The translations under genes and the position numbers were made by a program. From assembly GCA_964016885.1 (NCBI GenBank), contig OZ024756.1, positions 35,340,001-35,404,000 on the forward strand: a stretch of 64,000 nucleotides of DNA. Reading direction: 5' to 3'. This DNA is from Eledone cirrhosa. Lineage: Eukaryota. Positions 8,228 through 8,636 of the stretch are shown one piece after another. The notes beneath the pieces are model-generated. The model was not told the DNA's origin. It made no database searches and saw nothing but the letters and a program-made list of their open reading frames with translations. Each line of letters begins with the position of its first letter. Positions within the stretch are counted from its first letter, which is position 1.

Positions 8228-8325
8228 TAGTATAGTATAGTAAGTTATTCCGGGTTGAATCGGAGGTAACCACAGTAAGTAAGGTACTCAATACATAGCA
8301 GCGTATAAAAGTTTTAATATAGAGG

Positions 8326-8376
8326 AGATTCTACAGGACTAGAACTGTTTCATTCTTTAGAAATCATCAGGAATCT
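8326..8376 (-). ncRNA. Type I hammerhead ribozyme (family A), complete
   Basis: Reverse complement of the 8571-8621 motif. Confidence 0.8.
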
Positions 8377-8570
8377 GGCTTTCCAAAAATAAATGTTGTG
8401 GTATTTATATCTTTTCAGGTGGTAGGAGAGGGTGGGGAGTGGGATGGGTGGAGGCCATTGGTTGAAAGAAAAGGGAATTCATTAAACCAATGACCTCCAC
8501 CCATCCCACTCCCACCCTCTCCTACCACCTGAAAAGATATAAATACCACAACATTTATTTTTGGAAAGCC

Positions 8571-8621
8571 AGATTCCTGATGATTTCTAAAGAATGAAAC
8601 AGTTCTAGTCCTGTAGAATCT
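8571..8621 (+). ncRNA. Type I hammerhead ribozyme (family A), complete
   Basis: Stem I agattc/gaatct; CTGATGA; stem II t-TTC taaa GAA-t; GAA; stem III ACAG ttctagtc CTGT; GUA cleavage triplet with predicted cut after 8615. Confidence 0.8.
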
Positions 8622-8636
8622 CATCTACATTAAAAC

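Follow-up and report, generated by a model that had tools for sequence, protein, structure and literature searches.

A palindromic pseudo-LTR copy of a Penelope-like retrotransposon in Eledone cirrhosa, and a candidate two-end priming origin for its inverted arm

Two unequal element copies meet head to head in a (TA)n tract

The feature of interest is a palindrome embedded in TA repeats, in a 64,000 nt stretch of Eledone cirrhosa DNA (hereafter the window, to which positions refer unless another contig is named). Its two arms, of 154 nt and 153 nt, are identical at 150 of the 153 aligned bases (three mismatches and one gap) and are separated by exactly 21 nt (Table 1). A preliminary description of this DNA had claimed two inverted arms around a 21 nt spacer, with the full 3' tail on the left arm only; the alignment bears out both points, and the tail is 70 nt long. 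The span given at the time was 8244..8636; the element in fact starts at 8240, and the right arm ends at 8637.

The palindrome consists of (i) a tailed copy of a pseudo-LTR (pLTR) sequence, and (ii) a tail-less copy in the opposite orientation. The two meet at a head-to-head junction with a 2 nt (TT/AA) microhomology, and the 25-mer across this junction occurs once in the genome. The tailed copy is 97–98% identical to 29 other loci over 215–221 nt, and 95.9% identical over its whole 245 nt to locus L240, in which a reverse transcriptase (RT) ORF follows. Private substitutions number three in the tailed copy and one in the inverted copy (plus a 1 nt gap). No target-site duplication is discernible within the flanking (TA)n microsatellite.

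At the left junction (8221–8243), the TA tract is separated from the end of the element by a few tandem TATAG units, for which slippage and repeated abortive priming are offered as alternative sources. Just left of the palindrome, a short inverted pair (8009–8033 and 8146–8170) flanks the (TA)n tract.

Table 1. Features of the palindrome and its flanks. Element positions count from 0, the usual end of the tail.
Feature	Position	Strand	Remarks
(TA)n target, left side	8184..8239	.	last units at the junction are a few tandem TATAG
Tailed pLTR 3' part, 5'-truncated	8240..8484	-	element positions -247 to -1
70 nt tail	8240..8309	-	left arm only; in tandem copies the ORF starts ~43 nt further on
Left palindrome arm	8310..8463	-
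Identical type I hammerhead motif	8326..8376	-	predicted cut after 8332
Mirror promoter (likely)	8372..8461	-	CCAAT 8461, TATA 8409, Inr A at 8376
Spacer	8464..8484	-	21 nt, further upstream element sequence carried by the tailed copy
Inverted tail-less copy	8485..8637	+	element positions -224 to -71; stops at the second of the family's fixed ends
Likely Pol II core promoter	8487..8575	+	CCAAT 8487, TATAAATA 8538, Inr-like CCAGATT with A at 8571
Type I hammerhead motif	8571..8621	+	GUA site; cleavage predicted after 8615; stem II flanked by U.U
(TA)n-rich target, right side	8638..8885	.

The family carries an RT–endonuclease ORF and probably belongs to the Hydra clade

A 30 nt piece of the tail gave 8,218 matches in the genome, and its reversed control gave 0. 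Long copies, reached by following widely spaced ribozyme pairs, contain the ribozyme and tail and then, ~43 nt on, an ORF with RT plus, at its C-terminal end, a GIY-YIG-type endonuclease. Among 30 loci with the ORF start, 13 are open across the 565 codons examined; the full 713-aa ORF was found in four of six long loci, which had been chosen mostly among the open ones. In L221–L224 this ORF lies between two pLTRs that are 90–92% like the left arm, in a tandem pLTR-ORF-pLTR arrangement. The loci with the 713-aa ORF belong to a sister subfamily of the window copy. For the window copy's own subfamily, a motif search gave 17 matches, 11 of them with the ORF directly downstream. The unit is ~5 kb long because of a long microsatellite 3' UTR.

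The ORF displays the motifs RWR, DKT, CxCX5C (CNCLNKEAC), CxxC (CDLC) and CxH (CMH), together with a GIY-YIG-like motif. Its own Pfam match to GIY-YIG is sub-threshold only; relatives have RVT_1 and GIY-YIG Pfam matches. Section 11 of Craig et al. (2021, PMC8557442) gives, as marks of the Hydra clade of Penelope-like elements (PLEs), an RWK-type motif, DKT, CxCX5C, and CxxC/CxH around a conserved E and N. The present family shares with that clade an ORF of RT plus C-terminal GIY-YIG with RW(K/R), DKT, CxCX5C and CxxC/CxH, a hammerhead in sense orientation close to the 3' end, (TA)n targets, and inverted, 5'-truncated copies with a one-sided tail. It differs in unit length (~5 kb here, <3 kb there), in its 70 nt tail and in its 8 nt stem III loop. 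The supplement of the same paper contains a Hydra family from Octopus bimaculoides (Hydra-1_Obim); the hammerhead and protein sequences of that element are different, making the present one a separate family. Judged by its motifs and by eye against published Hydra sequences, the family is probably a member of the Hydra clade.

TA repeats terminate 95 of 100 sampled copies, and the window copy has TA on both flanks. We consider it nearly certain that the palindrome is a 5'-truncated, 5'-inverted pLTR copy of a young Hydra-clade PLE in (TA)n. An inverted-pLTR form of a Penelope insertion had been proposed from the outset, and both the ORF-linked copies and the published architecture support it.

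Within the window, tblastn found no ORF of this Penelope-like family, and the palindrome copy holds none. A 295-codon open frame at 32998–33882 (+) contains a zinc-binding motif of the type typical of non-LTR retrotransposon ends. Two further copies of the family lie in (TA)n at 19659–19791 (+) and 39132–39269 (+); both are truncated where the hammerhead core begins and lack an inverted arm. Sister families with related hammerheads form short head-to-head palindromes at 48722–48867 and 11951–12111, the centres of these lying just above the core (48.8 kb) and inside stem II (12.07 kb), respectively.

Animal non-LTR retrozymes (bioRxiv 10.64898/2026.07.22.740005) are likewise relatives of PLE pLTRs: short units that code for no protein and carry a type I hammerhead. 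The window copy was rejected as one of these: it is a single inverted pair without tandem monomers, and its family has its own ORF. The family does include one tandem array, at L227 (G000:C1:67879447-67882465). Here, ~690 nt is made up of approximately three tandem 222 nt units with 93–95% identity, each unit running from element position -151 to +71 (hammerhead, tail, leader and first codons). L227 is a retrozyme-like array that arose from the pLTR-ORF junction of this PLE.

Each arm carries a complete but weakly folding hammerhead motif

The 51 nt hammerhead motif is letter-identical on both strands. It consists of stem I (AGATTC/GAATCT), CUGAUGA, stem II (UUC/GAA), GAAA and stem III (ACAG/CUGU), the last with a partly palindromic loop of 8 nt; the core elements CUGANGA, GAAA and UH and the three helices are all present. 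The preliminary description had called the ribozymes intact, which is true of every core base. Three observations qualify the word: (i) positions 10.1–11.1 are U.U in place of the G10.1-C11.1 pair, (ii) the active fold has a predicted occupancy of ~0.1% as a monomer, and (iii) an Rfam search of the right arm (8490–8640) gave no hammerhead match at E ≤ 10. For the window as a whole, the 150 Rfam matches listed (of 485) contain only miRNA-model noise from hairpins and microsatellites. In transcripts starting at the initiator (Inr; see below), stems II and III are predicted at <5%.

The motif is not a product of chance, because its 44 nt core is matched exactly at 7,515 places in the 3.0 Gb genome, versus 0 for the reversed control. 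In sister families, stem I has changed in a compensatory way (A-U to C-G), and variation is concentrated in loop II; the hammerhead fold is therefore supported. Two copies pairing via stem III reach a cofold energy of -21.2 kcal/mol, versus -15.2 kcal/mol for two monomers, a dimer preference that is weak because 12.5% of shuffles of the stem III loop reach an equal cofold energy.

According to published work (PMC4209133, PMC11167929), metazoan PLE hammerheads show poor cleavage on their own or depend on protein. As in the minimal PLE hammerheads of Cervera and de la Pena (2014, PMC4209133), the present motif is of type I, lies in a pLTR, and has a palindromic loop 3 and a predicted dimer; unlike them, it has a longer stem III (4 bp), a short stem II (3 bp) and no G10.1-C11.1 pair. 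The same source describes dual hammerheads in Schistosoma, 100–700 bp apart on opposite strands, with little or no cleavage as monomers. Among the Hydra-clade sequences given in PMC8557442, Hydra-1_aJap, Hydra-2_aJap and Hydra-1_cRog also have U and U flanking stem II, and Hydra-1_aMil shares the acag/ctgt of stem III and the A at the cut site.

A read-through RNA of the palindrome is predicted to fold into a hairpin of 153 bp (MFE -280 kcal/mol) in which the ribozyme helices have a probability of 0.0; forcing the ribozyme fold changes the energy from -280 to -195 kcal/mol, a cost of ~85 kcal/mol. Since the hairpin buries the ribozyme to this degree, hairpin and self-cleavage are mutually exclusive, and palindrome RNA is predicted to be either ribozyme-bearing or a long hairpin, never both together. 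The earlier expectation that transcription in either direction would give a self-cleaving RNA plus a long hairpin is not supported on this point, the ribozyme of the read-through RNA being predicted to pair away completely.

The sampled copies also bear on cleavage. The predicted cut site is crossed by 88 of the 100 tailed copies; uncut RNA is therefore the usual template. Arm ends at -96..-91, where starts at the cut site would fall, number seven of 165 (versus 16 at -124..-97); a separate look at such starts covered only about two dozen loci and is biased by TA microhomology. No clear peak of copy starts at the cut site was found in the genome. Locus L230 (G000:C2:38757286-38760304) is a longer-than-unit insertion that runs inverted from 0 to -87, then from -92 to +41, then from -93 to -71, both forward segments beginning at the predicted cut product (-92/-93). 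It looks as if cleaved RNA had circularised or been jumped across, and its sequence gives a hint of occasional ribozyme cleavage.

Hammerhead-core motifs of other families occur in the window at 4871–4895 (+), 47733–47757 (+), 50191–50215 (-) and 20668–20717 (-). Entries L111–L135 of the hammerhead listing are background and part of no count.

Motif spacing and copy ends point to a likely promoter above the hammerhead

A TATA-like motif had been reported before the hammerhead of each arm, and it is there: in each, TATAAATA is found 33 nt above stem I. The initiator-like sequence CCAGATT is placed 30–33 nt below TATAAATA and 84–85 nt below CCAAT, and its Inr A is the first base of hammerhead stem I. 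By its spacing to Inr and CCAAT, the TATA-like motif agrees with a real core promoter. Both window arms retain CCAAT, TATA and Inr, back to back.

The 5' ends of arms in the sampled copies are clustered: 80 of 159 lie at -139..-128, versus six at -151..-140, with a sharp upper edge at CCAGATT (159 ends after dropping three loci for alignment over-extension). On the strength of motif spacing and this cluster, the CCAAT/TATA/Inr set in each arm is likely a Pol II core promoter. Because the ends pile up at the Inr, just below TATA and CCAAT, transcripts likely start with the hammerhead, and many short palindromes would thus be run-offs from the end of an RNA that starts at the Inr. The window copy extends above the promoter (-247 and -224) and so is likely a copy of the 3' pLTR carried by a read-through RNA.

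Mirrored copies are common in the family, and almost always bear a single tail

Layout was scored in the first 100 consecutive of the 8,218 tail matches, all on contig C1; one pair or more in the sample is a duplication (L179/L181), and BLAST places the ends only to within a few bases. An adjacent inverted arm is present in 65 of these tail-bearing copies and absent from 35. Without exception (65/65), the adjacent inverted arm has no tail. These arms end at -65 to -86, with 56 of the 65 at -65, -71 or -78; the spread comes from matches running into the TA flank. The catalytic core is found in both arms of 34 copies, while an arm overlap of ≥150 nt, as in the window copy, is seen in six (95% CI 2–13%). 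Extrapolation to all 8,218 matches gives ~5,000 mirrored copies, ~500 of them long-armed. An inverted, 5'-truncated copy with a tail on one end is the typical layout according to PMC8557442 and PMC3846280; the window palindrome is ordinary within its family, and its architecture is already published.

The 5' ends of paired arms are correlated (rho 0.54, n=65), and in 10 pairs both arms end above -145 (Fisher p 4e-9; a few of these are alignment over-extensions). After removal of five poorly aligned pairs, the tail-less arm is the longer in 22 of the remaining 60, the tailed arm in six, and the two are within 5 nt of each other in 32. Junctions overlap by 1–6 nt in 24 of the 60; others have short inserts. 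A stem with ACUC/GAGU is predicted ~5 nt beyond the -71 end; beyond the 0 end, ACUC is present and the predicted fold is ambiguous.

Several individual copies are worth recording. The junction inserts of L054, L153 and L204 copy nearby element sequence (CAGG, TCAGG), like the templated inserts of microhomology end joining. The one-sided-tail rule has exceptions among longer-than-unit copies: L234 (G000:C4:10998188-11001206) is a two-armed insertion whose arms both pass through a common joint from +75/+78 to -166, a sequence that suggests a 240 nt circular or jumped template.

Other inverted structures were seen. An unrelated repeat family forms palindromes at 7003–7131, 7753–7888 and 58303–58427, with a GAAAC-stem-GTC motif that resembles the hammerhead 3' half, and a longer inverted pair at 7067–7218 and 7665–7816. 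Elsewhere in the genome, five haemocyanin genes of seven domain repeats each lie at G000:C1:173.7-173.9 Mb and C26:21.9-22.0 Mb, and the two on C26 form an inverted pair. Seven units per gene are an octopod trait, and by this mark the host mollusc is likely an octopod.

Priming from two target ends is a candidate origin of the inverted arm

The family presents four regularities to be explained: one tail per pair, correlated 5' ends, a tail-less arm that is more often the longer one, and overlaps or inserts at the junction. As read from the copies, the simplest model is dual priming, in which both target ends would prime on one RNA, at two fixed sites ~70 nt apart. We regard dual priming as moderately likely, and hold as fairly probable the full reading of the locus as a Hydra-clade pLTR copy made by two-end priming on one RNA. 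Each of the following steps is inferred from the end positions of copies: (i) the element's endonuclease would cut both strands of (TA)n, (ii) one end would start at the tail end (0) and the other at ~-71, (iii) both cDNAs would extend towards a single RNA 5' end, with the tailed cDNA displacing the other, and (iv) the cDNA 3' ends would be joined by microhomology end joining. Were the tailed cDNA to stall near -71, a classic twin-priming product would be expected, as in L142, L172 and L210, where the tailed arm stops near that position. The template of the window copy would likely have been a read-through RNA over the 3' pLTR, uncut by its ribozyme.

In LINE-1 twin priming, two target ends prime on one RNA, giving a 5' inversion joined by microhomology; its arms show no overlap, and its second site varies. 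Here, by contrast, overlap of the arms is almost complete, and both sites stay fixed.

A biochemical parallel is found in a lizard PLE, the Poseidon element PAc of Anolis (Frangieh et al. 2024, PMC11167929). In vitro, PAc cuts and extends both strands from two start sites that bound the tail, and its template is mainly uncleaved RNA. These features, along with AT-rich targets and a protein-assisted hammerhead, are points of likeness to the family as we read it. The two differ in clade and in the place of the ORF, which in PAc starts inside the hammerhead, and here ~43 nt past the tail. A narrower version of the two-end model—twin priming by a dimeric RT-endonuclease, with strand displacement at two fixed sites and the end pile-up at the first hammerhead base marking the transcription start—is plausible, if somewhat doubtful.

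Three points run counter to the full reading. Fold-back of the tailed cDNA fits the window copy equally well (the tailed copy is 21 nt longer, with a 2 nt microhomology); in the PAc work the start site was no different on the top strand from that on the bottom strand; and the window tail measures 70 nt, versus the usual 30–40. The first of these belongs to an alternative that we think unlikely: that the same element made its inverted arm by self-priming, either by the first cDNA snapping back or by antisense RNA priming itself. Antisense-RNA self-priming was proposed for rotifer PLEs (PMC3846280), and self-priming agrees with the geometry of the window copy and also accounts for the short overlaps at junctions and the correlation of 5' ends. 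For the tailed cDNA to snap back, however, its arm must be the longer, and the tail-less arm is the longer far more often in the sampled pairs (22 versus 6 of 60); an antisense template leaves the end pile-up at the sense Inr unexplained. A twin-priming model for PLE inversions was not found in the literature outside subscription journals. PMC3846280 argues for self-priming, and PMC8557442 states the origin of inverted pLTRs and one-sided tails in PLEs as open.

A host-kept function at this locus, a bidirectional promoter or a source of dsRNA, siRNA or edited RNA, is improbable. It would be in keeping with the CCAAT, TATA and Inr retained in both arms, with the perfect 153 bp hairpin predicted, and with reports that octopus hyper-editing tracks dsRNA abundance and that lizard Penelope is heavily edited (PMC5625713). 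Yet the layout is common to the extrapolated ~5,000 copies, ~500 of them long-armed; nearby, no host exon was identified, only repeat-like ORFs; and the copy has just four private substitutions and one gap, and is thus young, without sign of selection or hyper-editing. No run of A-to-G changes, the fossil expected of editing, was found among the four private substitutions in the arms. Nothing singles out the window locus as an editing or siRNA substrate, and the copy is most likely inert baggage.

An artefact origin of the palindrome, by long-read fold-back or in the assembly, is very improbable. In the contigs of four public runs both arms are covered, and among the pieces listed none spans the stretch or bridges this junction, which leaves some room for the idea. 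Against it, the inverted repeat halts at the family's fixed end (-71) without including the flanks, the arms differ at three bases and one gap, the tail is one-sided, junctions vary between copies, and the public-run contigs (possibly from the same assembled sample) contain head-to-head joints of other copies in abundance.

Finally, a MITE or fold-back DNA transposon with the arms as terminal inverted repeats, which a short inverted structure of very high copy number in TA tracts might bring to mind, is scarcely credible: it was ruled out by centres that vary from copy to copy, the unique junction and the asymmetric ends, and is further opposed by the 35 of 100 copies without an adjacent inverted arm and by contiguity with an RT ORF.

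Consequences for the family and its host

If the window copy were transcribed, two outcomes are predicted from the folding models. Internal starts at the Inr would give two outward RNAs without a hairpin, opening with a weak hammerhead dependent on dimerisation or protein; a host read-through transcript would form the 153 bp hairpin, with the ribozyme silenced. The window locus itself matters little, being one of thousands, and the family matters modestly. Its counts separate the models of PLE inversion, through the strict one-tail rule, the correlated arm ends and the usually longer tail-less arm, and it adds a promoter and start-site reading as well as intact ORFs.

An unusually high density of near-perfect inverted repeats has been reported in octopus (PMC5625713), and this Penelope-like family is a plausible source of such repeats. 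By analogy with octopus editing that follows dsRNA, and with the edited Penelope of lizards, the family as a whole is a plausible editing substrate. If the two-end reading is true, one family would have seeded ~5,000 near-perfect hairpins, a supply of dsRNA for octopod A-to-I hyper-editing, and its intact 713-aa copies would allow the twin-priming model to be tested in vitro.
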